NCBI GenBank assembly: GCA_910576955.1
Contig: CAJTJB010000001.1
Span: 238,739-302,738, forward strand
Length of the DNA: 64,000 nucleotides
Direction: 5' to 3'
Origin: an uncultured Alphaproteobacteria bacterium
Lineage (GTDB): Bacteria > Pseudomonadota > Alphaproteobacteria > RF32 > CAG-239
A model generated the notes under the pieces. The model had not been told where the DNA came from. It was given only the letters and a program-made list of their open reading frames with translations, and searched no databases. The first letter of the stretch is position 1; each line of letters opens with the position of its first letter. Positions 13,395-51,623 of this stretch are shown here, in pieces. The position numbers and the translations under genes are program-made.

Positions 13395-16300
13395 GTGCTA
13401 AAAAAGGTTATTATAGGTATCATTTGTTTTATTTTGCTGGCCATTGCCGGTGCGGGCATATATATCTACACACTTGATTGGAATAAGCACAAAGCTCTTG
13501 TGGCACAAAGGCTTACCCAGATTACGGGTTTAAAATCCATCATTGACGGAAACCTTAAGGTTGAGATTTTTCCGGCTCCGAAAATTATGGCAAGCCGTGT
13601 TAAGTTTTATCCAAACAATAACAGTAAGACGCCGCTGGTGGTTATTAACCAAATTACGGCAAATCTTGAATTAGCCCCGTTGATTGACAATAAGTTCATT
13701 GTGCAGTCGATGATTTTGGAGCAACCGTCTGTTAATATTGAAATTTCCGAAAAAGGCGAGTTCAACTGGAAAGATGTGGGGCAAAACAGCCACAATAAAT
13801 CCGGTAACGTCGAGATGTCTTTTGACAACGTGCGCGTTAATAATGCGACAATTGCTTATGAAAACCTGAAAGACAAGAAAGAATATAACATTCCAAACAT
13901 TTCCGCAACGGTTAACGCCCCCTCTTTGCAAGGACCTTATAAAGTTGACGGCAAATTTATCCACAACAACAGCGAGATTAAATTTAAAGGCAATATTTCG
14001 CAAAACAATAAGACTTCTTTAAATATGGCGATTGAAAACGCCGTGACGGGCTCTAAACTTGCCATTGAAGGCTCAATCGGCAATAATTCCAGAGGAACGG
14101 TCAGCTTTGACACACGCAGCCTTACAGATGTTGTTAATGTTATATTCGGCGAAAATGCGCTTAATGACAATTACAAAGAGCCGATGTTTTTCTCTTTTCA
14201 ATACAACTATACCGCCAATATTGCCAAATTAGAGAATTTCACAACCAAGTACGGAAGAAACATCACCGGAAGCGGCAGCGTTTTGCTGAATTTGAGAAAT
14301 GAAAAAAGCGTTGTAGCCGAATTTAATATGGCTCAATTTAACCTTGATGTTTTGGAAACGATTGCACGCGACTATATCAAATTTTCGCAAAATGGCGGAA
14401 AACTGGCTGATACTGCCATTTTCCCATACTCTGTTTCGTTTAAGCTGCGTTCGCCGAGCGCTTTTTACAAAAATGCGGAGGCGCAAAACTTGAATTTCGG
14501 TTTCAATCTGAACAACGGGATTCTGGATATCAACAGTTTCGGAATTGTTATGCCGGGAGAAACTTCGTTCAGGACTGCCGGAAAGGTCAAACTGGATGAA
14601 AAGCTGCAATATATCTTCAACCAGTCAATTAAAAGCGAAGATTTCAGAACCTTTGCCTCCGTTTTCGGTATTGATTTGACCAAACAAACGGCTGAAGAAA
14701 ACAAAAAATCCGTGTTTAAACGGTTAGAAACAAATATCCAATTGAAAGGCAATTTGGATAGTTTTGAGATTTACGCGCCGAAAACGCTTATCGACTCTAC
14801 GACATTGGGCTTTAATATCCGCTATGCTTTGGACGAGGGCAAAAAAATCGTTAATGCCGATATTGCCGCTTCGAAAATCATTTTTGACAAATATTTGCAA
14901 ATCGTACCCGAAAAGCTGAAAAACAGCCCGCTTAAAGATAAATTTATTTATCAGCTTAACCTCATTCCATGGGATAATGATATGTTGACAACGGCGCAGA
15001 TTTCCATTGAAGATGCCGTTTATAACAAAATTCCGATGCAGGATATCGTGTTGCAATTTGTTAAAGAACAAGATAACTTTAACATTAGAAACCTTTCTTT
15101 CAAAAACATTGCAAGTGCGCAGTTAGAAATCAAAGCCGATATTGAGAAAGCTTTTACCGAACCGCAATTTAAGGAGTTATCCTATAATATTAAGTCCGCT
15201 AACCTGCCAATCTTAACCTCCTCTCTCGGATTAGATACGCACAATATGGGATTGTTTAAACGCAAAATATTTGCCTCCCAAGGTGCTTTGGCCGGAAACT
15301 TCAATGACTTCAGTTTGAGCTCTGTTCAGAAATTCGGCGATACGGAATTTTCATTTACCGGTTTGGTGGCAAACCCAGACAAGGCAAAAGTTGCCGTTAA
15401 CGGTGATTTAGAGCTGAAAACAAATAATTTTACCAACTTTGTTAGAGCCTTAAACCTTGACTATACGCCTAATATTCCGGTTACCGCCTTTTCTGCCAAC
15501 GGAAAGATTAAAGGCAATGCCGAAATCTTTGAATTTAGCGATATAAACGCTCTCTTGGGGGCAAACAAAATCAACGGCATTATCCGCTTTGATAACAGCG
15601 CGGACAAGCCCAGACTTAAGGCAGAACTTGATTTTGACAAATTTGATGCGACACGCTGGTTTAACCTTGATAAAAACAACACGGTTAAGTATGTTTCTGA
15701 AACTGCAGACTTTATTGTATTGCCAGCTTTCAGCGCTGATAAAATCGACTATTCGCCTTTAAATAAGGTTGATTTTGACATCAAAGCACATGCAAAATCC
15801 CTTATCTACGGCAATAATTCCTATCTTGCGACAAAGGCGGATATTAAGCTTAAGAAGGGCGTTTTGAATGTGGCTTCTTTTGAAACGCAAAGCGATACCA
15901 GCACCATCAGCGGCAATTTTGTACTTGATTCCAACAATACGCCGAAAGTAAAAGGAAAATATTATGTCGCCGGCATTAAAACACCCGATATGGGCGGAAA
16001 AATTTACCGTTTATCTTCCGGAAAACTTTCGGCTAACGGTACATTTGAATCCGATGCATCCTCGGTTAAGGATTTTGTTGACAACCTCAATTCTGCCGGT
16101 ACTTTCATGCTTACTGATACAGCAATGAAAGGGTGGGATTTAGACATTATTAAATTTGACATCGAACAGAGGAAAACTACTTCCGGCTTTGAAAAATTTG
16201 TGCGTAACAGCTTAACGAGCGGTGAAAGCCCCTTTGCTAAAATCGGCGGGAAATATAGCATTAAAGACGGCAACGTAAGCGCAGACAAAGCTTTATGGCA

Positions 16301-23171: not shown

Positions 23172-24084
23172 TTACTTTCTGACCGTTTCTGTCAAGCAAA
23201 GACAATTTATATTGCAGGGCAGGCATAACATTATCAGATGTTACATACCAATCTGCCGATGTATCAATTACGAAATCTGCATCGTTGGCATTGTTTACAA
23301 CATCAAATGCTCTTGAACCATCAATAATTTCTTTTGTGATGCCTCTTAAGCGATGGCTGCCATACGGCAAATCAGAACTCATTAAACGCGTATCTTTTAA
23401 ATATACGGTTCGGCTTGCACCATTATCATAGACAGCTGCCGTATCCTGCAACATCCGGTTTGTGGCACGCGTGGCTACAACATCATAAGCTTCCGGCTTA
23501 TATTTGGCTGCAGCGGCTGCACTTACTTTTGCCGATGAAGAGTTCATGGCTACCACTTCGGAACGATACGGGTTTCTTTCAACCGTTACTTCAACCAAAT
23601 CTTCTGCCGCAGCAGGTGCAGGAGCTGCCGAAACCTGATTATATCCGGAATAACTTACTTCTTCTACCGGAACAATTTCTTCATGTGTGGTTACAACAGG
23701 TTCGCAAACAGGTTTGCCGCAGGGCTCTTCCAACGTGGTGGTGGTGGTAATAATTTTTTTAGTGGTTGTGACTTTGGGCTGCGGCGCAGGCATCGGTTGG
23801 CAACCGCAAGACTGCATACACGGCGCCTGATAGCACGGCATCGGCTGAACTTCCGCACAGGGGCAGTCATATACTGGTGTCGGTGCCGGAATGTAAACCG
23901 GTTCCTGTTTTACAACAACCGGAGCTGCTACCGGTGCTGCAACAGGTTCGGGTTCAACAACCGGAGCCGGCTCAACATATGTCTGGTCATCAAACATAAC
24001 AACATCGACTTCTTCCCACTGGTTTTCATCGCATGCACAAGCAGCTAACAGACCGCAGGCTACTACACTTAAAACTTTTTTCAT
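23134..24084 (-). CDS. Lipoprotein with a Pro/Cys-rich linker and a C-terminal globular domain (LpoB/LPP20-like resemblance, uncertain)
   Basis: Lipobox MKKVLSVVACGLLAAC. Pro/Val repeats (PAPVVEPEPVAAPVAAPVVV) and a Cys/Pro cluster (CPCAEVQPMPCYQAPCMQSCGCQPMPAPQP) precede the C-terminal domain. Confidence 0.6.
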   Translation of the reverse strand: MKKVLSVVACGLLAACACDENQWEEVDVVMFDDQTYVEPAPVVEPEPVAAPVAAPVVVKQEPVYIPAPTPVYDCPCAEVQPMPCYQAPCMQSCGCQPMPAPQPKVTTTKKIITTTTTLEEPCGKPVCEPVVTTHEEIVPVEEVSYSGYNQVSAAPAPAAAEDLVEVTVERNPYRSEVVAMNSSSAKVSAAAAAKYKPEAYDVVATRATNRMLQDTAAVYDNGASRTVYLKDTRLMSSDLPYGSHRLRGITKEIIDGSRAFDVVNNANDADFVIDTSADWYVTSDNVMPALQYKLSLLDRNGQKVNEWVEIIRQVQD

Positions 24085-35103: not shown

Positions 35104-36669
35104 ATGGGAAAAACTGCAATCATTATCGGCGCAGGGCCGGCAGGGCTTACGGCAGCTTATGAGCTGCTAAACCGGTCTGATATTACCCCGATTATTTTAG
35201 AAGAAAATGACTTTGTAGGCGGTATCAGCGCTACGCTTGACTATAAAAACAATAAAATTGATATGGGCGGGCACAGATTTTTTTCAAAGTCCGAACGGGT
35301 GATGAACTGGTGGCTGGATATTTTGCCGCTGCAGGGCAAGCCCTCAAAAGACGACATCATTTTGAAAAGGGAAGTTGAGTTATCCAAACTTAAAGGTGCG
35401 CCCGATCCCGAAAAAACAGACAGGGTTATGCTTAAAAGGAATCGGCTCTCACGCATTTATTACCTCAAAACATTTTTCAGCTATCCGGTCAGCCTGAATA
35501 TGGAAACAATTAAAGGACTCGGATTGTGGCGGATGTTTAAAATCGGCTGCTCGTATATGAAAGCGCTGGCGTTTCCGATTAAAAACGAAAAATCTTTGCA
35601 AGATTTTATGATTAACCGTTTCGGAAAAGAGCTTTATCTGACCTTTTTCAAAGACTATACGGAGAAGCTGTGGGGTATCGACTGCGATAAAATTTCCGCC
35701 GAATGGGGGGCGCAGAGAATTAAGGGGATTTCCATCTTAAAAGTCTTAAAGCAGATGGCTCAAAACCTCACCGGAAAGAAAGGCGGCGCGGTTGAAACCA
35801 GTTTTATTGAGAGCTTTTTCTACCCAAAGTATGGTCCGGGGCATATGTGGCAAAGCGTTGCCGAAGAAGTACGGAAAAAAGGCGGCAAAATTATTTTTGG
35901 GCAGAAAGTGACGGGGATTACCCGCAAAAACTTTAAGATTTCTGCCGTTGAAACCACGGATAAAAACGGCAAAACGACGGTTTATGAGGGGGATATATTC
36001 ATCTCGACAATGCCGGTTAAAGACTTAATCGAATCGATGAATAACGTTCCGCACGAGATTAAAAAAGTTGCGGGCGGATTAATGTATCGCGATTTCAGAG
36101 TGGTGGGCGTGCTTTTGGACAAGCTTAAGCTTAAAAACACCACCGCGATTAAAACGATTAACAACATTGTGCCGGATACTTGGATTTATGTGCAGGAGCG
36201 AGAAGTTAAGCTTGGGCGGATTCAGGTGTTTAACAACTGGAGTCCGTATTTGGTCAATGACTTCCAAAACACTGTTTGGATTGGTTTAGAATATTTTTGC
36301 AACGAGCAAGATAACATCTGGACTGATGACGACAAAACGTTTATCAAATTTGCCGTGGAAGAGGCTGACAAAATCGGTATTTTTGATAAAAAAGACGTGT
36401 TGGATGCGTATACCGCCCGTGTTAAAAAAGCATATCCGGCATATTTCGGCACATATGACCGTTTTGATGAGATTAAGCGGTTTGTTGATAAATTCAGCAA
36501 CCTTTATCTGGTTGGCAGAAACGGTATGCATCGCTATAACAATATGGATCACTCCACTTTGGCAGCGATGAAAGCGGTTGACTGCATTTTGGGCGAATGC
36601 AAAGACAAAAACGAGATTTGGTCGGTCAACACCGAATCGGATTATCACGAAGAAAAACAGGCAAACTGA
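35104..36669 (+). CDS. NAD(P)/FAD-dependent oxidoreductase (amine-oxidase / protoporphyrinogen-oxidase-like Rossmann family); substrate unknown
   Basis: [21 protein letters not shown] is a GxGxxG dinucleotide-binding motif directly after an AAGGAG ribosome-binding site. About 521 aa. The track start at 34939 is an upstream extension. Confidence 0.7.
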
Positions 36670-36671
36670 TT

Positions 36672-38126
36672 ATGCGCAAATTTATAGAGCAGCAGTTATT
36701 TGAATTTGATACTTCGGCATTGGTGCGGATTTTGAAGATTCTTTCAGCTGCTGCTTTGTTGGTGATATTATATGCGTTTGTGTTCTCGGGCTTTCAGGTT
36801 GTGGATGAATTTGAGCACCTGCACGCTGCTTGGCTGGTGAGCATCGGGAAAGTACCGTATGCGGATTTTTTTGAGCACCATAATCCGCTGTTGTGGTATT
36901 TGAGCGCACCGATTGTCAGTGCGTTTTATGATAATGTCAGCATCTTCTATGTGATGCGCGGCATAAGCTTTCTCTGCTCGGCACTGACTGTTTGGTACAT
37001 ATATCGAATCGCAATGTTTTTCGAGAGCCGCGCTGGTGCGTGGCTTGCTGTGGCGCTGACGCTTTGCAACATTATCACCGTTTATAATTTTTCGCAATTT
37101 CGACCAGATAATTATATGAACCTTTGCTTTATTATCGGGGTTTATTACTGGTTTTGTTATTTACGGTCGAATCGGACCTTGGATTTAATATATTCATTTT
37201 TGGCATTTACGTTTTCAGCGCTTTTTTTGCAAAAAATATCCCTTTTGCTCATCGGGGTTGAAGGAATTATGCTGTTTCTTATTTATAAAAAGAAAATGCC
37301 ACTCAAAGCTGCAACGCTTGCTGCATTGCCTGCAATCGGCGTGATGTTTTTGTTTATCGGCTTTATATATTCCCAAGGTGCGCTGTTAGAATATATCGAG
37401 CTCAATATCAACTTTAACCAAGCGATGGTGAGTTATTTTGAGCGTGGCGCGTTTTGGTATCGGAATTATTATTTCAGCCTTTACGGGGGAGCACTTATTG
37501 CCGCGATATATTTGTTTAATAAAGAAAATATGTATTATAAAATATTGGCGGCAATTTATGTGATGGAATTTATAATGCGCGGATTTTATTTTGCACCGCA
37601 CCCAAACTATTACACCTTGTTGACAATGCTTGCGGCATTGGTGCTTTCTACCATTACCAAGCGGATTATGCCCGGGCATAAGATAATTTGCATTGTCGGC
37701 GTTTTCGGTCTGTTTTTGTATCTGGGAAGTATTTTTAACCAAACGGACAGCACTTCCGCTCGGCATAACAGTTATAACCATTACAAACTTGCGGAATATG
37801 TCCATGAAAACTCCGATAAAACCGATTTGCTGATGAATGGATATGACAAGAACTTCAATATTTACCGGCGCGATGTCAGCTATTATTGGTTCGGGCTTGA
37901 TATGCTGCTGCCAGTAATGGAAAAGGAATATGGGACAAACAATAAAATTGATGTTAACGCTTTGGTTTTGCAAAACCGTCCGAAATTTATCTATACGAAA
38001 GATTATGTAGATTTACAAGCATTGCGAACATACGGCGAGCGCAAATATTCGCAGAAATTCATTCCGGAAATTATCAACACGCTTTACCGACCGACACCCT
38101 TTGAAAATCTGGTTGTTTTAAAATAA
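36672..38126 (+). CDS. GT-C fold membrane glycosyltransferase (ArnT/PMT, GT39/83-like)
   Basis: About 11 TM helices. The first loop has ...DEFEHLHAAWLVSIGKVPYADFFEHHNPLLWYL, resembling the DE...KPPL motif of the ArnT/PMT family. The ATG at 36672 is 2 nt after the oxidoreductase stop (TGAttATG coupling). Confidence 0.6.
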   Translation: MRKFIEQQLFEFDTSALVRILKILSAAALLVILYAFVFSGFQVVDEFEHLHAAWLVSIGKVPYADFFEHHNPLLWYLSAPIVSAFYDNVSIFYVMRGISFLCSALTVWYIYRIAMFFESRAGAWLAVALTLCNIITVYNFSQFRPDNYMNLCFIIGVYYWFCYLRSNRTLDLIYSFLAFTFSALFLQKISLLLIGVEGIMLFLIYKKKMPLKAATLAALPAIGVMFLFIGFIYSQGALLEYIELNINFNQAMVSYFERGAFWYRNYYFSLYGGALIAAIYLFNKENMYYKILAAIYVMEFIMRGFYFAPHPNYYTLLTMLAALVLSTITKRIMPGHKIICIVGVFGLFLYLGSIFNQTDSTSARHNSYNHYKLAEYVHENSDKTDLLMNGYDKNFNIYRRDVSYYWFGLDMLLPVMEKEYGTNNKIDVNALVLQNRPKFIYTKDYVDLQALRTYGERKYSQKFIPEIINTLYRPTPFENLVVLK

Positions 38127-38184: not shown

Positions 38185-38844
38185 TTGATGCGGAAACTGT
38201 TTAGAATTATTTGTTTTTGCTTGTTGGGATTGGCAAAACTCGCTGTTGCCGACGAGGTTGCCGTGAGCAGTACGGACGCCCGCGACTGGACAAACAGCAA
38301 AGGAAAGGAACTGTTGCAAACGCTGGCAGAACCTGATTTGATTGTCAAATATTCAAAGCTTGACAAGATGATGACGGAATATGTGAATCTCGACTATGTT
38401 GCAAAATTTGTTATCGGGAAATACGGCAAAATTATGACACCCGAGCAAAAAGAACGTTATCGAGGGCTGTTTCAGCGCTATGTTTTGAGCTTGTATAAAC
38501 AATTTAATCTCAATATTGAAGAGGGAAGCATTAAATTTTCAATAGACAGCGTAACCGAACACCCGCGATTTACAACTGTCCAATGTACGGTTGACCCGGG
38601 GGATGTTTTGAAAAATATCAAAATTGAGAAAATTCCGGTCAAATTTAAGCTGATACGCGGCGTCAGCGATACTATCCAAGCCGTGGATCTGGAAATCTCC
38701 GAGGTCAGCATGGTGATTGAATACCGCAAGCGCTTTTATCAGATGATTAAAGAAGAGGAAGAGGATATCAACTGGTTTTTAGACCGTTTTGATGACAAAG
38801 TCCGAGCCAATGAGAAAGCCTTTTTGCAAAAAGCCGAGATTTAA
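38185..38844 (+). CDS. MlaC/Ttg2D-like periplasmic phospholipid-binding protein
   Basis: Signal peptide, then ...LDKMMTEYVNLDYVAKFVIGKYGKIMTPEQKERYRGLFQRYVLSLY, a MlaC family-like pattern. 219 aa. Confidence 0.55.
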   Translation: MMRKLFRIICFCLLGLAKLAVADEVAVSSTDARDWTNSKGKELLQTLAEPDLIVKYSKLDKMMTEYVNLDYVAKFVIGKYGKIMTPEQKERYRGLFQRYVLSLYKQFNLNIEEGSIKFSIDSVTEHPRFTTVQCTVDPGDVLKNIKIEKIPVKFKLIRGVSDTIQAVDLEISEVSMVIEYRKRFYQMIKEEEEDINWFLDRFDDKVRANEKAFLQKAEI

Positions 38845-38963: not shown

Positions 38964-41441
38964 ATGGTTGCTAACGCCAGATATAACGGAAAGAACAGTT
39001 TTGAAGAATGGAAAAAAGACTGGGAACTGGAAGAACGGTACAATTTTAAGAAAATTGAAGAAAAATGGCAGAAAATCTGGGATGAAGAAAAAGCCTATAA
39101 AGTAGAAATTGACCACGATAAAGAAAAGTTTTATGCGTTGGTTGAATTCCCCTACCCTTCCGGAGCAGGCTTACACGTCGGACACCCGCGCTCATACACG
39201 GCACTTGATGTGATTGCCCGCAAAAAAAGAATGGAAGGCTTTAATGTTTTGTACCCGATGGGGTTTGATGCTTTCGGGCTACCAGCAGAGAACTATGCCG
39301 TTAAGACCGGTATTCATCCGGCAGTTTCCACCAAAGCCAACATTGAGAACTTTACGCGCCAGCTCAAAGCCATCGGGCTTTCTTTTGACTGGGACAGATG
39401 TTTTAATACCTGCGATCCCGAATATTATAAATGGACGCAATGGATGTTTTTAAAGTTCTTTGAAAAGGGGCTGGCCTATAAATCGAAAATTGCAATTAAC
39501 TGGTGCCCAGCCTGCAAGGTCGGATTAGCGAACGAAGAAGTTGTTAACGGGCATTGCGAGCGATGCGGCGCGGAAGTGGTGCGCAAAGACAAAGAGCAAT
39601 GGATGATTGCCATCACCAAATATGCCGACCGCTTAATTGACGATTTGAAAGACGTGGACTTTATTGACAGAGTGAAATCACAACAAATTAACTGGATCGG
39701 GCGTTCGGAAGGCGCAGAGCTTGATTTTGAAATTACGGACAATGACGGCGTATCTTTGGGCAAGAAACTCCGCGTGTTTACCACCCGTCCGGATACGGCT
39801 TTCGGCGTGACTTATATGGTTATGGCGCCGGAACATCAGTATGTTGAAGAATTTAAAGACCGCTTCGCAAACAATGCGGAAATTCAAAAATATGTTGCGG
39901 AAGCAGCCAAAAAATCTGACCTGCAGAGAACGGCGGACGATTCCAAAACCGGTGTGGAATTAAAAGGTATCAAAGCGAAAAATCCGTTTAACGGCAAGCT
40001 TATTCCGATTTTTATTTCCGATTATGTTTTGACCGGATACGGCACGGGAGCAATTATGGCAGTTCCGGCGCATGACCAACGCGACTATGATTTCGCAAAA
40101 GTATTTGACCTGCCGATTATTCAGGTGTTGGAAGGCGGAGATATTTCCGAAAAGGCATTTGAAGAAGACGGACCGCACATTAATTCAGATTTTCTTAACG
40201 GAATGGGCAAAGATGACGGTATTAAAGCAGCTATCGCCTTTGCAAAAGAAAAAGGTATCGGCGAGGCGAAAATCAATTTCAAACTGCGTGACTGGGTTTT
40301 CTCCCGCCAGCGTTATTGGGGTGAGCCGATTCCGATGGTTTATTGCGAACATTGCGGCTGGCAGCCGATTCCGGAAAGCGAATTGCCGCTGACGTTACCG
40401 CAAATTTCCGACTTTTTGCCGAATGACGAGGGCGACTCTCCGCTTGCCAAAGCGACAGACTGGGTTAACACCACTTGTCCGAAATGCGGCGGAAAAGCAC
40501 GAAGAGAAACCGACGTTATGCCGAACTGGGCCGGGTCTTCGTGGTATTTCTTGAGATATTGCGATCCGCATAATGATAAAGAATTCGCCTCTAAAGAAGC
40601 GCTTGACTACTGGATGAACGTGGATTGGTATAACGGCGGTATGGAGCACACGACTCTCCACCTGCTCTATTCCCGTTTTTGGCATAAGTTTTTGCACGAC
40701 TGCGGCTGCGTTCCGACATCCGAACCTTATAACAAACGCACGTCACACGGTATGATTTTGGCGGAAAATGGCGAGAAGATGTCTAAATCTCGCGGTAATG
40801 TGGTTAATCCGGATGATGTGATTGACGCATACGGCGCAGACGCTTTCAGAATGTATGAAATGTTTATCGGACCGTTTGACCAAGTGGCGATGTGGTCTGA
40901 TGAAAGCCTGAACGGCGTACACCGTTTTGTAAATAAAATTTTTGCCCTGTTCGGCAAGGTAACGGCAGTTGCTCCGACAGGAAAAGACTTGCAGGTTATG
41001 CATAAATGCATTTTGGATGTCAGCGAGCGTATCGACCAGATGAAGTTTAATACTGCTGTTTCTTCGTTAATGACCTATGTCAATTACCTTGCAGGCAGAC
41101 CGGAAGTTTCCGAAGATTTGTATGTCACTTTGCTGAAACTGGTAGCACCGTTTGCTCCGCATTTGGCAGAAGAAATGTGGGCAAGGCTTGGCAACATGAC
41201 GCTTATTGCCAAAGAAAGCTGGCCGAAAGGCAACCCCGAGCTCGCCAAAGACAATACGGTGACGATTGCCGTACAGATTAACGGAAAAATGCGCGGCACA
41301 ATTGAAACCGAGCGCGATATGGATAAAGACAAAGTTATCGAAATGGCGAAGTCTTTGGAAAATGTTGCCAAGCAGTTGACCGAGGCAGAACCGAAAAAAG
41401 TAATTGTTGTACCAAATAGGATTGTAAACATTGTTTTATAG
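38964..41441 (+). CDS. leuS: Leucyl-tRNA synthetase
   Basis: 825 aa with HVGHPRSYTALDVIARKKRMEGFNV (HIGH) and KMSKSRGN (KMSKS). Confidence 0.95.
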   Translation: MVANARYNGKNSFEEWKKDWELEERYNFKKIEEKWQKIWDEEKAYKVEIDHDKEKFYALVEFPYPSGAGLHVGHPRSYTALDVIARKKRMEGFNVLYPMGFDAFGLPAENYAVKTGIHPAVSTKANIENFTRQLKAIGLSFDWDRCFNTCDPEYYKWTQWMFLKFFEKGLAYKSKIAINWCPACKVGLANEEVVNGHCERCGAEVVRKDKEQWMIAITKYADRLIDDLKDVDFIDRVKSQQINWIGRSEGAELDFEITDNDGVSLGKKLRVFTTRPDTAFGVTYMVMAPEHQYVEEFKDRFANNAEIQKYVAEAAKKSDLQRTADDSKTGVELKGIKAKNPFNGKLIPIFISDYVLTGYGTGAIMAVPAHDQRDYDFAKVFDLPIIQVLEGGDISEKAFEEDGPHINSDFLNGMGKDDGIKAAIAFAKEKGIGEAKINFKLRDWVFSRQRYWGEPIPMVYCEHCGWQPIPESELPLTLPQISDFLPNDEGDSPLAKATDWVNTTCPKCGGKARRETDVMPNWAGSSWYFLRYCDPHNDKEFASKEALDYWMNVDWYNGGMEHTTLHLLYSRFWHKFLHDCGCVPTSEPYNKRTSHGMILAENGEKMSKSRGNVVNPDDVIDAYGADAFRMYEMFIGPFDQVAMWSDESLNGVHRFVNKIFALFGKVTAVAPTGKDLQVMHKCILDVSERIDQMKFNTAVSSLMTYVNYLAGRPEVSEDLYVTLLKLVAPFAPHLAEEMWARLGNMTLIAKESWPKGNPELAKDNTVTIAVQINGKMRGTIETERDMDKDKVIEMAKSLENVAKQLTEAEPKKVIVVPNRIVNIVL

Positions 41442-41994
41442 TAAAAAAAATATAGCTCTTGCAGCGCTGATTGCCTTGATTGCCGGATGCGGATTTGAAC
41501 CGCTTTATGTGGAAAAAAAGACCTCCGGCGAGTGGTATTATGATAACGAATTTGACACGGGCATTATTGAAGAAATGGCAAGTGTTAAGGTCGAGCTTAT
41601 CCAAGACCGAATCGGGCAGCTTATCCGTAATGATTTGCTGGATAAATTAAGCCCGAAAGGACAGCCTGCACATCCTAAATATTATCTGAAAATTACAGGT
41701 ATCAAAAAGCGGGAAATTGATCAGGCGCTGCGCAATGATATTACCGCCACCCGTAAGAAAGTCATTTATACGGTCACTTATGTCCTGAAAAACAATGAAC
41801 ATAAAAATTTAATCAGCGGAAACAGTGTTGCATATTTGGGGTATGATATTTTGCGCGATCCGTATTCAACGACATTTGCACAAAAGAAAATTGAGAAAAA
41901 TGCGGCAAAAATTATTGCCAATGATATTTCGCTGCGGTTAGGCGCTTATTTCCACTCACTGCAGACAAAAAGGGGCAATCCGGATGAATATTAA
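41431..41994 (+). CDS. lptE: LPS-assembly lipoprotein LptE
   Basis: Lipobox LIAGCGFEPLY, 187 aa, located between leuS and holA as in other proteobacteria. Confidence 0.75.
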   Translation: MFYSKKNIALAALIALIAGCGFEPLYVEKKTSGEWYYDNEFDTGIIEEMASVKVELIQDRIGQLIRNDLLDKLSPKGQPAHPKYYLKITGIKKREIDQALRNDITATRKKVIYTVTYVLKNNEHKNLISGNSVAYLGYDILRDPYSTTFAQKKIEKNAAKIIANDISLRLGAYFHSLQTKRGNPDEY

Positions 41995-43009
41995 GCCGGA
42001 ACAAGTTGAAAATATTGTTAAGTCTTTACCGCAAACTCTTCGCGGCGTGGTGATTTACGGCAGCAATGAGGGTATGATTGCGACACTTTCGCAACAGTTC
42101 ATTAAGGCGATATCACAAGATATTTACGATGCGTTTCACGTTAGTTATTTGGAGATGGCAGATATTGCTTCGGATATCGGCGCGTTATACGCGGAATTTA
42201 ATGCCCAATCCTTAATGGGCGGGCGGCGCGTGGTAGTGATTAAAGAGGCGACCAACCTTTTAACCAAGCCTTTAAGAGAGCTGCTGGCCTCAAGCTCTTC
42301 AGACAGCCTGCTCGTGATGACATCCTCTTCGCTTAAGACCAAAGATTCCCTTGCGGTGATGGCAAAAGACGAGGCGGATTTTTATGGCATCGGCTGCTAT
42401 GATGACCGTGACGAAGATATAACGGCCTTTGCCTCAAAATTTATGGCAAAAAACGGCATTAACATTGATAACAATGCTTTTCAATTGCTGTGTTCGCGGT
42501 TATCAAATGACCGCAAAATCAGCGCAAACGAACTTGATAAGCTTGTTACCTATATGGGGGAAAATAAAAATATCGGCATTAATGACGTTTTAACGGTTAT
42601 CAGCGATACATCCGCTTCTTCGCAAGAGGATTTGAGCTATTATATTGCACAAGGAATGACAGACAAAGCTCTGGCATCCTATAACCGTTTGGTATTTGAG
42701 GGAGAAAATCCGGTTTCGATTGTTCGCACCGTCAGTTATCATTTTATGAAACTGCTTGAGTGTGCGATAAAGATGGAAAAAGGGGAAACGGCTGACAAAG
42801 TCGTTTTCGGATTGCGCCCTCCCTTGATGTTTTTCCGCAAAAACGCTTTTTTAAACCAATTGCGGATATGGAACAGAAACCGGATTTTAAGCGCGCTATC
42901 CCTTTTGTATCAAACAGAAAGAGAATGCAAAACAACAGATTTCCCTGCTGAACAGGCTGTCAGTTTTGCACTTATGAGAATTGCTAACGGAGTGAAGAGA
43001 TTTAGATAA
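41984..43009 (+). CDS. holA: DNA polymerase III delta subunit
   Basis: 341 aa at the conserved leuS-lptE-holA position. Typical HolA length and helical architecture. Confidence 0.75.
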   Translation: MNIKPEQVENIVKSLPQTLRGVVIYGSNEGMIATLSQQFIKAISQDIYDAFHVSYLEMADIASDIGALYAEFNAQSLMGGRRVVVIKEATNLLTKPLRELLASSSSDSLLVMTSSSLKTKDSLAVMAKDEADFYGIGCYDDRDEDITAFASKFMAKNGINIDNNAFQLLCSRLSNDRKISANELDKLVTYMGENKNIGINDVLTVISDTSASSQEDLSYYIAQGMTDKALASYNRLVFEGENPVSIVRTVSYHFMKLLECAIKMEKGETADKVVFGLRPPLMFFRKNAFLNQLRIWNRNRILSALSLLYQTERECKTTDFPAEQAVSFALMRIANGVKRFR

Positions 43010-43590
43010 TGTTTAAATTTAATAACAAACGTTCCCGCGGTGGGTTTGGCGGTGATGCACAAATAAAGTTTTTTCTTGATTATATAAAGGCTTTTCCGGA
43101 AGAATGCCCGAATATATTAAGAGTAATCAAAGCAAGGTTGACAACAAAAGACCATGATGATGCGCATATCGGCGATTTTTGCGCAATTATAGAGGGGATT
43201 TTGCTGCAGCAAAATGAGTATTGTCGGGAGATATTTGAATTGGTACAAATTATTTATGCCAAATACCGCAGAACTCCCTTATCTTTACTTATCCGCATTA
43301 TTAATAAAGATGGCAGATGCGCGCAGAAATCTTTTGAAATGTTGATACAATGGCTGAAAGTCAATTGCTGGAGCGAGGGAAAACTTACCCATCTGTATCA
43401 ATATCTTACGAAATTATCGGAATTGCATCCGGAATATTGCAACGAGATTTTCAGAGTTGCGAGTTATGCCGTTTTGCGGTTAGAAAACGATTCTTATTCT
43501 ATGGACGAAGCGAAAAAACTGTTTAACAACTTATCTGCGCTATCGCCGGAACTTAAAAAAACAATCAAATCGTTTCTGACCGAGATATAA
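43009..43590 (+). CDS. Hypothetical cytoplasmic protein (193 aa), start overlapping the holA stop
   Basis: Helical and Cys-containing, with no recognisable motif. It sits where nadD follows holA in E. coli. Confidence 0.5.
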   Translation: MFKFNNKRSRGGFGGDAQIKFFLDYIKAFPEECPNILRVIKARLTTKDHDDAHIGDFCAIIEGILLQQNEYCREIFELVQIIYAKYRRTPLSLLIRIINKDGRCAQKSFEMLIQWLKVNCWSEGKLTHLYQYLTKLSELHPEYCNEIFRVASYAVLRLENDSYSMDEAKKLFNNLSALSPELKKTIKSFLTEI

Positions 43591-45518: not shown

Positions 45519-45625
45519 TTGTGTTAAATCCTTAAATTTAAATTATTTTACTTTCACCATATTAGAAGCCATTTATTCAATAAATGGTAAACAAATATAA
45601 AAATTTTATCTTTTTTTCGGTTATG

Positions 45626-46360
45626 TTATTCGCGGGTGCTCTTAATGTTATTCCCCATATAAGACAAATCATACCGCGTGATGGTTATGCCGAACGGATT
45701 TATTAAACCCAGCCTTTTATCTTCGTATTTTTCAGCATTAAAGTTCATACGCAATGTGGCTATCCAACGGCTGATCAGCGGTTCAATATATTCCGGACCG
45801 GTATCTATGGTTTCAAACCGAACCTGCCAGAAATCAAATGACACGGGATATATCATATTTATCTTTACCTTACGCCGGATATTCTTTTTTTGCAACGACT
45901 CAAAATATGGCAGTTCAGTTTGTTGAAAATCACGATAAACCTCTGTTGAAGACGCCAGATTCACAAACCCGTTTTCATTGTAACGGCTCATCATTTCATC
46001 ATAGTCTTCACCGATTGTATAACGCTGCTCAACATATTTTGCCATCAGGCTCTCGGTTACCAAATCGCCTGCATATGCCCGAGTTTCCGCTGGCTGCATT
46101 ATTGATATTTGATAACGGTCATAATCTATCTGCAACGGTATCACCCTAACTTTTCGCTGCGGAATCAGGAGTGTCAACGTGCCGGCAAGAACCATATTTA
46201 AGCACAAACTGATTACCGAAATTACCACGAAAAAGCGGGAGGTCCATAAAAAGCGCCTTTCGGGAAATGCGCGAACGTCTACTTTTTCTGGATAATAGCC
46301 GAGCTCATCTTTTTGGGCTTTTTCCTTATATTTGAACAGAGTATAAAATAAATCAAACAT
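45626..46360 (-). CDS. VirB8-like (type IV secretion VirB8 / TrbF / DotI-like) bitopic inner-membrane protein; orphan
   Basis: Short cytoplasmic N-terminus, one TM (FFVVISVISLCLNMVLAGTLTLL), then a VirB8-like periplasmic domain: LIPQRKVRVIPLQIDYDRYQISIMQP ... LMAKYVEQRYTIGEDYDEMMSRYNENGFVNLAS ... ITITRYDL. Compare A. tumefaciens VirB8 LTPLKTVEPYTLLVDRQTG ... FLVQYIIAREGYDFDTLQSDYRKVAL ... VSRYRRD. Confidence 0.5.
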   Translation of the reverse strand: MFDLFYTLFKYKEKAQKDELGYYPEKVDVRAFPERRFLWTSRFFVVISVISLCLNMVLAGTLTLLIPQRKVRVIPLQIDYDRYQISIMQPAETRAYAGDLVTESLMAKYVEQRYTIGEDYDEMMSRYNENGFVNLASSTEVYRDFQQTELPYFESLQKKNIRRKVKINMIYPVSFDFWQVRFETIDTGPEYIEPLISRWIATLRMNFNAEKYEDKRLGLINPFGITITRYDLSYMGNNIKSTRE

Positions 46361-46493
46361 CTTCTCACCGTTCTTGAAATTCCATATTATCTCTATTTTA
46401 CATGAAAGTTGTATAAAATCAAATAAAATACTATCAATTAAAAAATTTTTAGTGTAAATGTTTATTTGAACAATAATGTTTGAGGGAAAACTA

Positions 46494-48347
46494 ATGAAGA
46501 AACTTGTTTGTTTTATGGGAGCTGTTGCCGGTTTTGTGGGCGCTTGCTCTACTACTGCGCCGGAAGTTACCGTTGAGGCGCCAGCTATGTCCGCCTATTA
46601 TTCCGACTGGGACAGAGCTGTCAGAGCCGATGTTGATATGCAGAATATGTATATCGGCACGCCGTCGAAAATCACAAAACCTGTTGATATGTATATGGCA
46701 ATGGCTTTAGCTTTGAAATATAATTACACAAGAAGGCTGGCCAGCTATAAAGAAAGTCTGGGCGCAGATAATATTTCTTTGGCAGCGCTGCCGACCATGG
46801 CTGAAAATCTGGGGTATGAAAACAGCACGAATTCCGATGCAGTTCCGGCTGATTTGAAAGTTTCTTGGAATCTTTTAGACTTATCCGCACTTCAGTATCA
46901 GAACACGGCGGCTTCTCCCGAAACAGCTGCTCAAGAGCAAACACGCAAAGTTATCAATAACATCATGCTGGAAACGCGTTCTTTGTATTGGAAAGCTTTA
47001 GCTGCGCAGCGGCTTATTCCGGTTATTGATGACATGAACGAGTATCTGGTTCGCGTTGTGGATGAGATTAACGCTCGTTCAAATGAGATGGCTAAAGCAG
47101 GCAAAAATCCCTCAACGACTCTGCTTGTAAAAAAGAGAACTTATCTTGAAAACATCAAAAAATTAGCTGATTTGAGAAAGAAATTTGACACAGCTCAAAC
47201 CGAATTTGCCGGTTTGCTGGGGTTATATCCTTCCGCAGAAATCAAATTAGCCGGGGCGGAATACGGCAATTTCCCAATTCCGTCGCTGCGAGCTAAAATT
47301 CAGCAATTAGAATGGCTTGCATTAACGAATCGCCCTGAACTGCGCGCATTTGATTTGGGAACATCCAAAGACGAGCTGCAGCTTGTGATTAAAGATTTTG
47401 ACAGCGTTAACAACAGTGATTATCGCCAAGACCCCAACTATTATAACAGAAAATGGGCAAAAGATTCGAATGCGCTGTCTATGACTGTTTTTGAAGAAGC
47501 TACTGATAATAATGACTTGACTTATAATTCATTAGCACGGCAGAGAATGGCGCACATTGTGCTTAATCAGGTTTATCTGGCATGGGCTATGTATCAGTCT
47601 GCCGTGGAAGATTATTACCTGAATATGGGCGTGGCGACAACGTCTGAAGATATTGCCGAAGATATTACCAACAAAGAAGGCGCAAACAAAGCTATCAGCC
47701 ATTTAGAATCGGCTCGCGCCATTATTGACGAGGCAAACGCTTTCTTATCTTATATAGACGTTCAGGAAGCAATCGGCAGATTATATGCCAGTATCGGGTT
47801 AGATGCTGTTCCGGCATCTATGCTTAAAGATACTCCGTCTGTTATCGCCGTACAAATCAGAGAATCGCTTGACAATTGGAGCAACGGTATCTTCTCGGCT
47901 GATGTTAAAGGCGCTTTGGCGACATCTTCCGGACAGAAACCTCCGGCAGATATTTCATCTGCGGCATTAGTTCCAAATGTTGTTGTCGGGACCGGATCTG
48001 ATGTTAACATTAAAATTCCGGATGAAGTTTTCCAAAAAGTAAATTGGGAAGGAAATTATACAACTGTTGCCGGCTCGTTAGATGATGCGGGGTTGCCTGC
48101 TTGGTTGAAATATGATGACAAAACTCACACCTTTACCGGGCATCCGACGATGGAAGACGAAGGAGATTATCGCATTAAAGTGTATGCTTTAGATAATTCC
48201 GGCAACAGCGCGGTGCTTGGCTTTACGATTACCGTAAATAATGTTTATATTCAAACGATGGAATATAAAGGGCTGACCGGTTACAGACGTGCTAAAGTAT
48301 ATCATAAATGCACACCGGGAACGCCTTGTGCAAAAAATGATATATAA
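46494..48347 (+). CDS. Lipoprotein combining an OMF/TolC-like (NodT-type) helical region with a C-terminal cadherin-like / putative Ig domain
   Basis: Lipobox AVAGFVGAC. The OMF-like region has LDLSALQYQNTAA...LYWKALAAQRLIPV...WLALTNRPELRAFDLG. The C-terminus has VNIKIPDEVFQKVNWEGNYTTVAGSLDDAGLPAWLKYDDKTHTFTGHPTMEDEGDYRIKVYALDNSGNSAVLGFTITVNN (dystroglycan-type cadherin-like motif). The track start at 46476 is an upstream extension. Confidence 0.55.
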   Translation: MKKLVCFMGAVAGFVGACSTTAPEVTVEAPAMSAYYSDWDRAVRADVDMQNMYIGTPSKITKPVDMYMAMALALKYNYTRRLASYKESLGADNISLAALPTMAENLGYENSTNSDAVPADLKVSWNLLDLSALQYQNTAASPETAAQEQTRKVINNIMLETRSLYWKALAAQRLIPVIDDMNEYLVRVVDEINARSNEMAKAGKNPSTTLLVKKRTYLENIKKLADLRKKFDTAQTEFAGLLGLYPSAEIKLAGAEYGNFPIPSLRAKIQQLEWLALTNRPELRAFDLGTSKDELQLVIKDFDSVNNSDYRQDPNYYNRKWAKDSNALSMTVFEEATDNNDLTYNSLARQRMAHIVLNQVYLAWAMYQSAVEDYYLNMGVATTSEDIAEDITNKEGANKAISHLESARAIIDEANAFLSYIDVQEAIGRLYASIGLDAVPASMLKDTPSVIAVQIRESLDNWSNGIFSADVKGALATSSGQKPPADISSAALVPNVVVGTGSDVNIKIPDEVFQKVNWEGNYTTVAGSLDDAGLPAWLKYDDKTHTFTGHPTMEDEGDYRIKVYALDNSGNSAVLGFTITVNNVYIQTMEYKGLTGYRRAKVYHKCTPGTPCAKNDI

Positions 48348-48358
48348 AGGACGGTCAG

Positions 48359-49909
48359 GTGTTTGACTATATAGAAAAGCATCCTATCGTTTTTACTATC
48401 TTAATATGCTTGCTGTTATTTTTAACAGCAGGCATATTTTATAATGCGGTGCCGATAAGCGATTTTCAGGCATCCTATCTGATTTTTGCGGGGATTTTGG
48501 CTTCATGTACGGATGGTTACAATAAGCGAATCGGAATTATTTTGGCAACGCTTTTCCTTTTTCTGTTGTTTCTAACGGCAGATGCCCGCAGCAGCATTTA
48601 TCTTATCGGCGAATACGGAATTTTATCATTATTTACGTTTCTCAACAAATCCCGTTCGAATATTTTTATATTTGCAATAACAGCGGCGGCGTTTTTATTG
48701 CATTTGCATTATATACAATATACGCCTGTAAATATCCGACAGCATGATATAAATGGCATTATGCTGTATATGAAACAGATTACGCAAAACGGTCTGAATA
48801 TTTTACAATTTGACCCGTGGCATATGTATTATCTGTTTCACCAACCGCTGCATTTTATCTTTGCCGGCTATTTATTATCTTTGGAATTATATTTGTGGAA
48901 CTCCAACGCCTTGGCTTTAGAGGGAGTGCAATATTTGTCTTTGTTATATGTGACGCTCACCACCATTACGGCAGCCGCTATTTTCAAAGAACTTCATATT
49001 GTGGGGAAACCATTTTATGCCTTGTTGCTATTGTTTGCATTTAACCCGACGCTTACGCTGTTTTCCGGATATCTTTCCGATGATGCTCCGGCGGTTTTTT
49101 GGAGCGTTTGCGTTGTCTATTTTATTATCAGATGGTACAAGGCGGAGCGGGCAAAAGATATTGTTTTTGCGGCGGTTTGTTTTGGTTTCGGGGTGCTGAC
49201 AAAATTATCCGTTTTAATGATGGTGCCGGCTGTCTGTTTTATTTTTGCGTACAAGTTATTTTTCACGCTGTCCGACAGGCAAAAAACTTTGCAGCAAATA
49301 AGCTGTTTTATTATTGTTGCCGTACCGCTTGCGCTGCTATGGATTATACGCAACCATATTTTATTTGATATGCAATTTTTCAATATTCCCGACACATCTC
49401 CTGCGGGACAGAATTTTAAATATCTGACTTTAACGGAGCGAATCGGTGACTTTTCAATGTTTTCTTATCCGTTTCTTGATGCGCCCAAAGTTAATGACGC
49501 CAATATCTTCCTTGCACTGATTAAGACAGAACTGTTCGGCGAATGGGATTTCAGCATTGCGAATCATTTTGTTTATTTGCCGGCACTGATACTTTATGTT
49601 CTGAATATTTCAATTAAGTTTTTGGCATTTGCCGGATGCCTTTCAGGGGTAAAAAATTCAACCATTGAGCATCCGTTTGAGGGAATGTTTGCTATTCTTT
49701 ATTTAACAATTTGGCTTTACGCTTTAAAGTATGCGCTTGATTATCCTTATATTTGTTCAACCGATTTCAGATTGTTTGCACAACTTATGTTGCCTGAAGC
49801 TATTTTACTTTTTGCGGCTTGTCCAAAGATAATGAAAAACGCCGCATTTCCGGCACTTTCCATATCATATGCGGCGTTAAGCTGTTTCATTTATCTGTTC
49901 GGAATCTAA
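48359..49909 (+). CDS. Polytopic membrane protein, second GT-C-like (ArnT/PMT-like) glycosyltransferase candidate
   Basis: 516 aa with 12 or more TM helices. An early loop (HDINGIMLYMKQI...FDPWHMYYLFHQPLHFIF) resembles the D-x...xPPL loop of GT-C enzymes. A GYLSDDAP loop is also present. GTG start. Confidence 0.45.
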   Translation: MFDYIEKHPIVFTILICLLLFLTAGIFYNAVPISDFQASYLIFAGILASCTDGYNKRIGIILATLFLFLLFLTADARSSIYLIGEYGILSLFTFLNKSRSNIFIFAITAAAFLLHLHYIQYTPVNIRQHDINGIMLYMKQITQNGLNILQFDPWHMYYLFHQPLHFIFAGYLLSLELYLWNSNALALEGVQYLSLLYVTLTTITAAAIFKELHIVGKPFYALLLLFAFNPTLTLFSGYLSDDAPAVFWSVCVVYFIIRWYKAERAKDIVFAAVCFGFGVLTKLSVLMMVPAVCFIFAYKLFFTLSDRQKTLQQISCFIIVAVPLALLWIIRNHILFDMQFFNIPDTSPAGQNFKYLTLTERIGDFSMFSYPFLDAPKVNDANIFLALIKTELFGEWDFSIANHFVYLPALILYVLNISIKFLAFAGCLSGVKNSTIEHPFEGMFAILYLTIWLYALKYALDYPYICSTDFRLFAQLMLPEAILLFAACPKIMKNAAFPALSISYAALSCFIYLFGI

Positions 49910-50673
49910 TCGCGGCGCAACCCTTTGATTTCCGCCTCGATAGCATCTGACAAATCGTCATTGCCGCTTTCGGTTTCCTTTTTTAATTCCGTATCTGCTG
50001 TTTCTTCCTGCATTTTGGTAAAGAGCAACAGGTTTTCCGGTTCTTCGCCTTCTTCAATTTCGCTCACATATGAGGTTGATGTTTCGGAGATATAGGCGGG
50101 CGTTTCCCGAATATCCTTTTCAATATCCCTATCTTCATTTATGAACTCTTTAATGCGGATAACCTGCTCTTTTTCCGGTGCAGCTTGTTCACCGGCTGTT
50201 TCCTCTTTAGCAACGTTTTTACCGGAAATAACATCCTTTGCAGGCAAATTGTCGCGTTGTTTTAGTTCTTCTTCCGTCAGTAATTTGGCGGCTTCCACTT
50301 CAGCATCTATGCATTCAAGCAGCCACACGTCATAAATGGGGTGCTCAATCGCATTTATTCCGGGAGTTGAAGACAACATCCATCCGCGGAAAATATTATA
50401 TTCATCCTCGCCGAAACTTTTATCTGCCACATCAACAAACGCAAAATTTTCGGGCGTTTCTTCCGCCGGACGTTTTTTGCACGCACGCAACACCAGCGAA
50501 AAATCGCCAAAACTTATTTTGGAATTAACCGGCACGGTGATTTTATTGACGCGCCCCGTCACCTTATCCATTGCCTGCATTAACGCTGCATTTGTCGGAA
50601 TTTCTGCCGCCAGTGCGGGTGCACACATTAAACAGCAAAGCGCTGCCGTATATTTCAGCTTATTTTTCATCAT
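49906..50673 (-). CDS. Secreted DUF2155-like protein with a long acidic C-terminal tail
   Basis: Signal peptide MMKNKLKYTAALCCLMCAPALA; core VTGRVNKITVPVNSKISFGDFSLVLRACKKRPAEETPENFAFVDV; then an E/D-rich tail. Last gene of the mce-mce operon. Confidence 0.5.
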   Translation of the reverse strand: MMKNKLKYTAALCCLMCAPALAAEIPTNAALMQAMDKVTGRVNKITVPVNSKISFGDFSLVLRACKKRPAEETPENFAFVDVADKSFGEDEYNIFRGWMLSSTPGINAIEHPIYDVWLLECIDAEVEAAKLLTEEELKQRDNLPAKDVISGKNVAKEETAGEQAAPEKEQVIRIKEFINEDRDIEKDIRETPAYISETSTSYVSEIEEGEEPENLLLFTKMQEETADTELKKETESGNDDLSDAIEAEIKGLRRD

Positions 50674-51187
50674 TGTTTGTCACCATAAAGATAATTTCAC
50701 CCACCATATCTTCTAAAGATTTGGCATCTTTCGTATTTGTCGCCGTTGAACCAGCAGCCATTTTTTCTTTTGCTTTTCCCGGTTCAATCTTAACATATTT
50801 ATCGCCCATCAGCCCGTCGCCGGCAATCATTATCTGACTGTCTACGGGTAACGAAATCTGCGGCATTATGCTTAATTTAACATCTACCATATAATCCAGC
50901 GGGTTTACGCTTTGAGATACGACAGTTCCAACTTTGATGCCGTTTATTCGCACGTCTGCGCCCGTATTTAACCCGCCCACTTTTAAAAAGCGGCTGTTTA
51001 TCTCATAACCTTTTACCACCTGCAAATCCGACACGCGGTATGCAAACATCATAAACAGGGCTGCGACGGCTAACACGACCAGCCCCATAATTGTTTCCAC
51101 CGGCTTTTTATTCATTGTCTTCTCCTTTATCTTCTGCCTTGTTTGACCGGGCTTGTTTTCCCTTGCCCATTGCCACAATGCGTTCAA
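50660..51187 (-). CDS. MlaD-like single-MCE-domain protein, paralog 2
   Basis: Probable start MNKKPVETIMGLVVLAVAALFMMF near 51115 (N-terminal TM), with MCE-domain pattern ...GYEINSRFLKVGGLNTGADVRINGIKVGTVVSQSVN... Confidence 0.75.
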   Translation of the reverse strand: MNALWQWARENKPGQTRQKIKEKTMNKKPVETIMGLVVLAVAALFMMFAYRVSDLQVVKGYEINSRFLKVGGLNTGADVRINGIKVGTVVSQSVNPLDYMVDVKLSIMPQISLPVDSQIMIAGDGLMGDKYVKIEPGKAKEKMAAGSTATNTKDAKSLEDMVGEIIFMVTNNDEK

Positions 51188-51623
51188 GCAATTCTTCTAA
51201 TACGAGGGCATCCTGCGTATAGCTGATGCTGCCTTTATCCGGAATATAATCTTCTGACCCGCCGACTTCTATTTCAACATATTTGCCGCCTATCAGCCCG
51301 AAGCTGACAATCGAAGCGCTGCTGTCATCCGGTATGCGGTAACGGCTGCTGATGTTTAAGGTCAGGCGAGAATTAAAATTTTCATCAAGTTCGGCTTTTG
51401 AGACACGCCCGATATTTACGCCCGAAAGACGGACGGCATCTCCAACATTCAAACCGTCCGTGCGGCCAAAACTTGCGTATATGTCATATGTATCGCCGAT
51501 GCCTCGATTTTTGATTGAGGCATTATGCGAAATGGTTACGAACACAACAATCAGGACAACGGCAAGAGCCATTATTCCGGTGCGAATCGACTTTTCTTCC
51601 TCAATAGAATATTTTTCCTGCAA
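51108..51623 (-). CDS. MlaD-like single-MCE-domain protein, paralog 1
   Basis: N-terminal TM GIMALAVVLIVVFVTI, with MCE-domain pattern YDIYASFGRTDGLNVGDAVRLSGVNIGRVSKAELD. Confidence 0.75.
   Translation of the reverse strand: MQEKYSIEEEKSIRTGIMALAVVLIVVFVTISHNASIKNRGIGDTYDIYASFGRTDGLNVGDAVRLSGVNIGRVSKAELDENFNSRLTLNISSRYRIPDDSSASIVSFGLIGGKYVEIEVGGSEDYIPDKGSISYTQDALVLEELLERIVAMGKGKQARSNKAEDKGEDNE

Follow-up and report, generated by a model that had tools for sequence, protein, structure and literature searches.

Introduction

VirB8 and TolC are textbook components, each of a different export machine. In the structure of the R388 type IV secretion system (T4SS) the tails of VirB8 bind VirB4 and the periplasmic domains form arches (PMC9259494), and in the rvh system of the Rickettsiales the VirB8 genes are both dispersed and duplicated (PMC4676284). 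A full-text search of the literature found no description of a pairing of VirB8 with TolC, and the 2025 review of T4SS nomenclature mentions neither TolC nor an orphan VirB8; searches for genomic work on the lineage likewise brought up nothing of use. Here we describe such a pairing in a 64-kb stretch of DNA from an uncultured alphaproteobacterium (contig CAJTJB010000001.1; the whole stretch is referred to as the window). A gene for a VirB8-like protein (VirB8L) stands there in divergent orientation next to a gene for a lipoprotein that appears to join an outer membrane factor (OMF) of the TolC/NodT type to an immunoglobulin-like (Ig) domain, hence OMF-Ig. An earlier note on this DNA, made from the sequence alone, had drawn attention to these two genes and to a third for a GT-C-like membrane protein. 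VirB8L and OMF-Ig are shown below to be a conserved divergent pair that is kept while both of its flanks change. Our preferred reading, to which we give a probability of about one half, is that they constitute a co-regulated, T4SS-derived two-protein envelope module maintained by purifying selection in several lineages of gut Alphaproteobacteria.

Conservation of the pair

The closest genomes are metagenome-assembled genomes (MAGs) of uncultured gut Alphaproteobacteria from human, mouse and ruminant hosts, labelled by their depositors as Acetobacter sp., Rhodospirillales, Rickettsiales or plain Alphaproteobacteria. Both genes are carried by all 18 of the species-level genome loci, in which the whole neighbourhood is syntenic. 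Synteny across these 18 genomes proves little by itself and it is the distant relatives that are informative. The metagenome scan for distant loci reached relatives at identities of at least 38%. In homologues where VirB8L is 35–44% and OMF-Ig 41–51% identical to the window, the two genes are again divergent neighbours and both flanks are unlike those of the window, with at least eight different arrangements. On the OMF-Ig side NrdD, an open reading frame (ORF) of ∼1000 aa and others were found, and on the VirB8L side peptidase M3, DUF2207, a second VirB8L copy and others. The OMF-Ig gene was present in all of the ∼95 loci with DNA available upstream of virB8L (58 distinct intergenic sequences), and look-ups begun from OMF-Ig likewise always gave an adjoining VirB8L.

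The ratio of nonsynonymous to synonymous substitution (dN/dS) was taken from the closest pairs only, synonymous sites being saturated beyond these; even between the two closest genomes dS was already ∼1.3–1.5. The values were 0.06 for VirB8L and 0.05 for OMF-Ig, with 0.01–0.03 for clpPX, holA and lptE. OMF-Ig is 70–89% identical across clade 1 of the related loci, comparable to lptE and holA. Both VirB8L and OMF-Ig are thus under strong purifying selection. The three genes of the locus stand between clpP-clpX and holA-lptE-leuS at one end and DUF2155, a pair of mlaD paralogues and an ABC system at the other, and the GC content at the locus is ∼0.41–0.42, compared with 0.426 for the window. The suggestion in the earlier note that these might be accessory genes does not agree with such a housekeeping chromosomal setting at local GC, nor with a degree of identity like that of lptE and holA.

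It might be supposed that the two genes are neighbours by chance, or the remnant of a decayed mobile element in which a degenerating T4SS gene lies beside an unrelated lipoprotein. VirB8 genes usually arrive on conjugative elements and the nearest annotated relative of VirB8L is plasmid-borne. Given that the ORFs are intact with dN/dS of ∼0.05, that the regulatory DNA between them is conserved, that the pair occurs in every related genome found, and that it sits in a housekeeping context at the GC of its host with no integrase or relaxase nearby in the ORF scans and T4SS search of the window, chance adjacency or a decaying remnant is effectively excluded.

VirB8L and its origin

VirB8L scored 70.3 bits against the Pfam VirB8 family PF04335 (cutoff 23.2), the match covering positions 18–210 of the 213 in the profile. 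A profile of its own family matches the solved structures of VirB8, TrwG and TraE with E values from 1e-9 to 1e-3. The AlphaFold2 (AF2) model, with a predicted local distance difference test score (pLDDT) of 76, consists of an N-terminal tail, a long helix at residues 34–68 that contains the transmembrane (TM) segment, and an alpha+beta domain of NTF2-like fold. Using Foldseek this model gave template modelling scores (TMt) of 0.80–0.85 to the VirB8 proteins of Brucella, Bartonella and Agrobacterium, with 0.85 to the Brucella structure 4akz. The NPxG motif is present as N221-P222-x-G224, and N221, P222 and G224 are invariant in the family alignment. The pattern-based proposal of a 244-aa bitopic VirB8-like protein is therefore borne out by the Pfam score, the structure-profile matches and the TMt of 0.85. 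VirB8L is predicted to be a bitopic inner-membrane protein with its N-terminus inside and its VirB8-type NTF2-like domain in the periplasm.

The most conserved part of VirB8L is the cytoplasmic tail, with a mean pairwise identity of 84.9% compared with 53.6% for the NTF2-like domain and with the motif FKYKEK..LGxYPExVxVxAxPERRxLWTSR. The subfamily is large, giving 69 clusters at E<1e-30 and 355 at E<1e-10 in an exhaustive profile search, and a tail motif (L)GxYP...(P)ERRYLW(T)xR is common to many of its members. Outside its own group, the nearest relatives of VirB8L are the VirB8s of conjugative T4SS operons. One of these, P0396 in locus L113, is 36% identical to VirB8L and lies within a complete virB2-B11/virD4 operon in a genome of 67% GC, and its tail carries the core motif (G)xYP..PERRYLW. 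Among annotated relatives the best was found on an Erythrobacter plasmid, as the VirB8 of a conjugative T4SS (29% identity); it has the shorter GxYP..PERR part only, the LW not being conserved. Since the nearest relatives are in T4SS operons and the tail motif is common to both, VirB8L is, on these sequence comparisons, a chromosomal descendant of an alphaproteobacterial conjugative-T4SS VirB8.

The retention of this tail bears on a further explanation, namely that VirB8L is a working subunit of a T4SS whose other genes (VirB4, VirB9, VirB10 and so on) are located elsewhere, as in the Rickettsiales; the lipoprotein would then be an added T4SS-associated outer-membrane component or merely be co-regulated with VirB8L. 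Given that such VirB8 tails bind VirB4 in R388 and that dispersed, duplicated VirB8 genes have a precedent in rvh, it is consistent with this explanation that conservation in VirB8L peaks in the tail, which has the motif of T4SS-embedded VirB8s, and that related MAGs contain further orphan VirB8 paralogues and tandem duplicates. An rvh-like T4SS is also encoded by a gut alphaproteobacterial MAG, locus L110, where a VirB8 (P0436) is part of the gene order VirB8, small lipoprotein, VirB8, VirB9, repeat protein, VirB10, VirB11. However, no other T4SS gene was found in the window, either by a Pfam scan of 42 ORFs (41 of the 56 that reach 150 aa or more, and the ORF at 50238-50528) or by tblastn with 23 proteins from the T4SS clusters of three alphaproteobacterial loci (VirB2/3/4/5/6/9/10/11/D4 and unannotated cluster ORFs), nor in 115 related loci (±10 kb each, 1.6 Mb altogether). 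The orphan status claimed in the earlier note thus holds locally. Furthermore, the L110 system has its own VirB7/9/10 outer-membrane core and so has no need of a TolC-type channel, its VirB8s are only 23–28% identical to VirB8L and do not have the LGxYP part of the motif, and L110, with a GC content of 0.386 against 0.426, may come from another lineage than the window. A scattered T4SS is the main rival of our preferred reading and seems somewhat unlikely.

Several other arrangements of VirB8-like genes were observed. The L110 region (L110:8888-20747) encodes a 63-aa VirB7-like lipoprotein, a VirB9 with a SPOR domain, a 1267-aa beta-flower/RHS repeat protein and a 1412-aa VirB10 with beta-flower repeats, and its duplicated VirB8s around a small lipoprotein recall the Rickettsiales rvh system. 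Paralogues of the VirB8L family stand alone amid housekeeping genes at L109:10001-10741, L114:8001-8744 and L115:6635-7483, two of them following SfsA, peptidase M24 and RadC, and one of these two being from ‘Acetobacter sp. CAG:977’. Such orphan genes of the VirB8 type seem to be common in gut Alphaproteobacteria related to the window. In some clade-2 lineages a tandem second VirB8L, ∼30% identical to that of the window, sits directly downstream of the copy facing the OMF-Ig gene (L087:5821-7358, L108:50-1594, L112:7197-8807). In a marine alphaproteobacterial MAG (L111:3733-10912) P0305, a 303-aa member of the VirB8L family with the same tail motif, follows Wza-like Poly_export/SLBB and YjbH genes; this is a single instance and is possibly a further case of a VirB8-like protein paired with proteins of outer-membrane export. 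Three proteins of 402–621 aa (P0313, P0322 and P0382) comprise three or four consecutive VirB8-like stretches. To our knowledge such multi-domain VirB8 repeat proteins are unusual for sequences of the Gram-negative type.

The OMF-Ig lipoprotein

The true start of the lipoprotein is Met7 of the ORF, where all homologues begin MKK, which confirms the length of about 617 aa given previously. In the signal peptide Cys18 is invariant and belongs to a lipobox of the pattern L-[AGST]-[AGS]-C, a trait of the NodT subfamily. The highest mean pairwise identity of any region of the protein, 83.8%, is found at residues 33–89, near the start of the mature protein.

The predicted structure contains the two-repeat OMF fold with long, tunnel-type antiparallel helices (142–201/208–241 and 341–395/400–434), and secondary structure and fold matches span both repeats. 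Support at the level of sequence is thin. The OEP family (PF02321) scored 22.9 bits, with a cutoff of 22, over a single repeat and matched 11 of the 31 members of the lipoprotein family (E<=0.01), TIGR01844 reached 22 bits against a cutoff of 225, and sequence searches of the PDB with the lipoprotein returned no OMF match. The identification as a NodT/TolC-like OMF made in the earlier note is upheld by the fold and the lipobox, the OEP match being borderline. The presumed beta-hairpins (residues ∼90–131 and 293–340) are short and polar with a pLDDT below 50; among the candidate barrel strands S2 and S5 alternate as usual while S1 and S4 are short and polar.

The C-terminal Ig domain proposed from the sequence is confirmed by a score of 41.9 bits to He_PIG (PF05345), the profile and fold matches both being positive, and it resembles dystroglycan Ig-like domains and SraP cadherin-like modules by sequence and by fold. 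The same proposal held that this domain stands in place of the second OMF repeat. This is incorrect, since helices and fold matches were obtained for each of the two repeats; the OMF is complete, and the Ig domain comes as an addition after it. With the topology of TolC the Ig domain is predicted to be periplasmic. The two cysteines of the C-terminal tail, C606 and C612, are invariant and probably form a disulfide loop. In none of the loci examined does an HlyD-type membrane-fusion protein or an RND or MFS pump adjoin the OMF-Ig gene, VirB8L being its sole conserved neighbour.

The shared intergenic core

The spacer between virB8L and the OMF-Ig gene is 115–135 nt long and contains a core that is near-invariant in clade 1 and recognisable in clade 2, despite a dS above 1. 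The longest unbroken stretch with conservation of 90% or more was 39 columns in the core, compared with 1–13 in four control intergenic regions taken from the same loci and 8 in the virB8L coding sequence. The core occurs once in the window, and a 20-nt sub-pattern of it matched 56 of 117 loci with one copy in each, located between the two genes wherever both were present. The core had no match in Rfam and is AT-rich with overlapping sigma70-like hexamers on both strands. An RNA element was therefore rejected and the core was read as promoter or operator DNA; it probably holds two sigma70-type promoters that overlap back to back, or an operator, for use by both genes. A CtrA box (TTAA-N7-TTAA) noticed in the clade-2 spacer was dropped as it overlaps the Shine-Dalgarno sequence of virB8L and is not conserved in clade 1.

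A core resembling two overlapping divergent promoters is also what would be expected if the two genes were neighbours for the sake of regulation only, that is, a general exit duct of the TolC type and a VirB8 paralogue, either repurposed or T4SS-related, that act independently and are held together by promoters that are hard to separate. An OMF usually works with several inner-membrane pumps whose genes lie elsewhere, and relatives of VirB8L can occur alone. Set against this, the adjacency has outlasted the rearrangement of the flanks down to ∼40% identity, which is unusual for functionally unrelated genes, the constraint on both genes is similarly strong, and the Ig domain, the ultra-conserved N-terminal segment and the Cys-loop tail of the lipoprotein point to a dedicated partner rather than a generic duct. 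We consider a purely regulatory association unlikely.

The GT-C gene and other features of the window

The 516-aa GT-C-like ORF reported to begin 12 bp after the lipoprotein gene is present. Its polytopic product scored 25.7 bits against PMT (cutoff 22.7) and 23.6 bits against PMT_2, under the cutoff of 26.1 for that family, and NCBIfam gave weak matches to Leptospira glycosyltransferase families, so that assignment as a GT-C/PMT-like protein is marginal. The earlier note had offered all three genes as a possible envelope or secretion module. This stands for VirB8L and OMF-Ig, which adjoin one another in every locus that could be read and share the intergenic core, but not for the GT-C gene, which is confined to clade 1 and is missing from L012, L017 and every clade-2 locus. 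The GT-C gene, with a dN/dS of 0.15, was accordingly rejected as a third member and is a lineage-specific passenger outside the conserved pair. Its position directly after a gene that ends in a dystroglycan-type Ig domain was noted, as animal dystroglycan is O-mannosylated by PMT-family enzymes; that the Ser/Pro-rich linker before the Ig domain in clade 1 (KKPPVDxSS) is a target of glycosylation is speculative. A second GT-C gene (36597-38126; PMT_2, 35.6 bits) lies 8 kb upstream of the region. The coordinates of the main features are collected in Table 1.

Table 1. Features of the VirB8L/OMF-Ig locus and of the window (positions are those of the window).
Feature	Position	Strand	Remarks
VirB8L gene	45626..46360	-	244-aa ORF, intact
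VirB8L cytoplasmic N-terminal tail (predicted), residues 1-42	46235..46360	-	family alignment
VirB8L single TM helix (predicted), residues 43-66	46163..46234	-	hydrophobic stretch inside AF2 helix 34-68; alignment
Conserved intergenic core TATTTTACATGAAAGTTGTATAAAATCAAATAAAATACTAT	46394..46434	.	~41 nt; extends to ~46458 within clade 1
OMF-Ig lipoprotein gene	46494..48347	+	617 aa; ORF opens at 46476
Strongly conserved N-terminal segment of mature lipoprotein, residues 33-89 (AYYSDWDRAVRADVDMQNMY...KYNYTRRLASY)	46590..46760	+	
OMF core (predicted), two structural repeats, residues ~66-245 and 269-466	46689..47891	+	
Dystroglycan-type cadherin-like/He_PIG Ig domain (predicted), residues 494-584	47973..48245	+	
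C-terminal tail, Cys-x5-Cys, invariant C606 and C612	48246..48344	+	homologue alignment
GT-C/PMT-like gene (marginal assignment)	48359..49909	+	516 aa, start 12 bp past lipoprotein gene
Envelope-lipid genes of the window	50660-51623, 49906-50673, 38185-38844, 13395-18599, 41431-41994		

On its other side virB8L is followed on the same strand by clpP-clpX after a gap of 107 bp (45519-45625), with no terminator-like site predicted between them, and co-transcription with clpPX is possible in clade 1. This linkage is absent in clade 2. Envelope-lipid genes are plentiful in the window, with two adjoining MlaD paralogues, DUF2155, MlaC, a 1734-aa AsmA/TamB-like protein and LptE. As the pairs of other clades, clade 2 included, have unrelated neighbours, this theme was dropped as a clue to function and is not counted as evidence. 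The remaining scanned ORFs of the window encode housekeeping or envelope proteins (ileS-like, SLT, AsmA-like, lgt, gap, pgk, MlaC, spoT and gcrA). An ORF of 193 aa after holA (43009-43590) matches no family and was detected in four loci only (L001, L002, L029 and L048), being variable at 28–73% identity among related loci. ARAGORN called a 98-nt tRNA-Cys with the odd anticodon ACA at 23877-23974, within a 316-aa ORF of the opposite strand, and this is probably a false positive.

Discussion

If the pair is indeed a two-protein envelope module, VirB8L would reside in the inner membrane and oligomerise through its periplasmic NTF2-like domain like VirB8 in the T4SS arches, while the lipoprotein would form a trimeric TolC-like tunnel anchored at the outer membrane. 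The periplasmic end of the lipoprotein, its Ig domains or its conserved N-terminal segment might then dock onto VirB8L, the two together making a periplasm-spanning assembly that could serve as a conduit or as a tether. The conserved tail of VirB8L would bind a cytoplasmic or inner-membrane partner which, by analogy with R388, might be a VirB4-type ATPase if the genome has one. We infer, as the most economical mechanism, that the two proteins meet in the periplasm and there form or stabilise the envelope-spanning assembly.

There are several points which weigh against the two-protein module. Contact between VirB8L and OMF-Ig is something that we infer only, and a conserved divergent pair can be compatible with shared regulation alone. 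Relatives standing by themselves in L109, L114 and L115 indicate that an outer-membrane partner is no general requirement of the family. The Ig domain has been lost in L012. In view of its short, polar barrel hairpins, which were modelled at low confidence, the lipoprotein may form no open channel in the outer membrane. Lastly, given that the T4SS-type tail is retained, VirB8L may depend on T4SS parts elsewhere, in which case the module would be a piece of a larger system.

A stronger form of the proposal is that the pair is a self-contained and hitherto undescribed envelope-spanning apparatus in which a VirB8-type scaffold of the inner membrane, exapted from a conjugative T4SS, docks a TolC-type outer-membrane tunnel by means of the Ig domain or the N-terminal segment. 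Such an apparatus would operate without a VirB7/9/10 core and without a membrane-fusion protein. We regard this as possible, though doubtful. If it were true, it would represent a cross between the architectures of type IV and of TolC-dependent export, or else a tether of a new kind between the inner and outer membranes. Should the two proteins form one complex at all, a T4SS scaffold protein would prove re-usable as the link between an inner-membrane assembly and a TolC-type duct, and the pair would provide a new, small model for the construction of trans-envelope machines. In widespread uncultured Alphaproteobacteria of the human and animal gut the module belongs to the core genes and evolves slowly, and it is therefore probably important for the envelope biology of its hosts.

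The domains involved are each known; it is the combination of VirB8 with a TolC-family lipoprotein bearing a periplasmic Ig domain that was not found described. VirB8L shares with VirB8/TrwG/TraE of the P-type T4SS (PF04335) its bitopic form, the NTF2-like fold, the NPxG motif and the juxtamembrane ERRxLW motif of the tail. Unlike them, it is not encoded with VirB4, VirB9, VirB10, VirB11 or VirD4 and is invariably paired with a TolC-family lipoprotein on the core chromosome, and conservation is far higher in its tail than in its periplasmic domain. RvhB8-I/II of the Rickettsiales are likewise alphaproteobacterial VirB8 paralogues that have multiplied and lie apart from other vir genes. In contrast to VirB8L, RvhB8-II adjoins RvhB9-II and RvhB7 and not an OMF, and the tails of the rvh paralogues are highly divergent (PMC4676284) whereas that of VirB8L is its most conserved region. 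The Ig domain matches the He_PIG/CADG Ig domains of surface proteins in sequence and fold; here it is fused to the C-terminus of an OMF, an end which is periplasmic in a TolC-type topology, so that it would not be part of an extracellular adhesin. With the TolC/NodT OMFs (OprM, CusC, CmeC and MtrE) the lipoprotein has in common the N-terminal lipobox of the NodT subfamily and a borderline OEP match. It differs from them in adding the Ig domain, the Cys-loop tail and the ultra-conserved N-terminal extension and in its short, polar barrel hairpins, and where these OMFs would be accompanied by a membrane-fusion protein or an RND, ABC or MFS pump, it has instead a partner of the VirB8 family.

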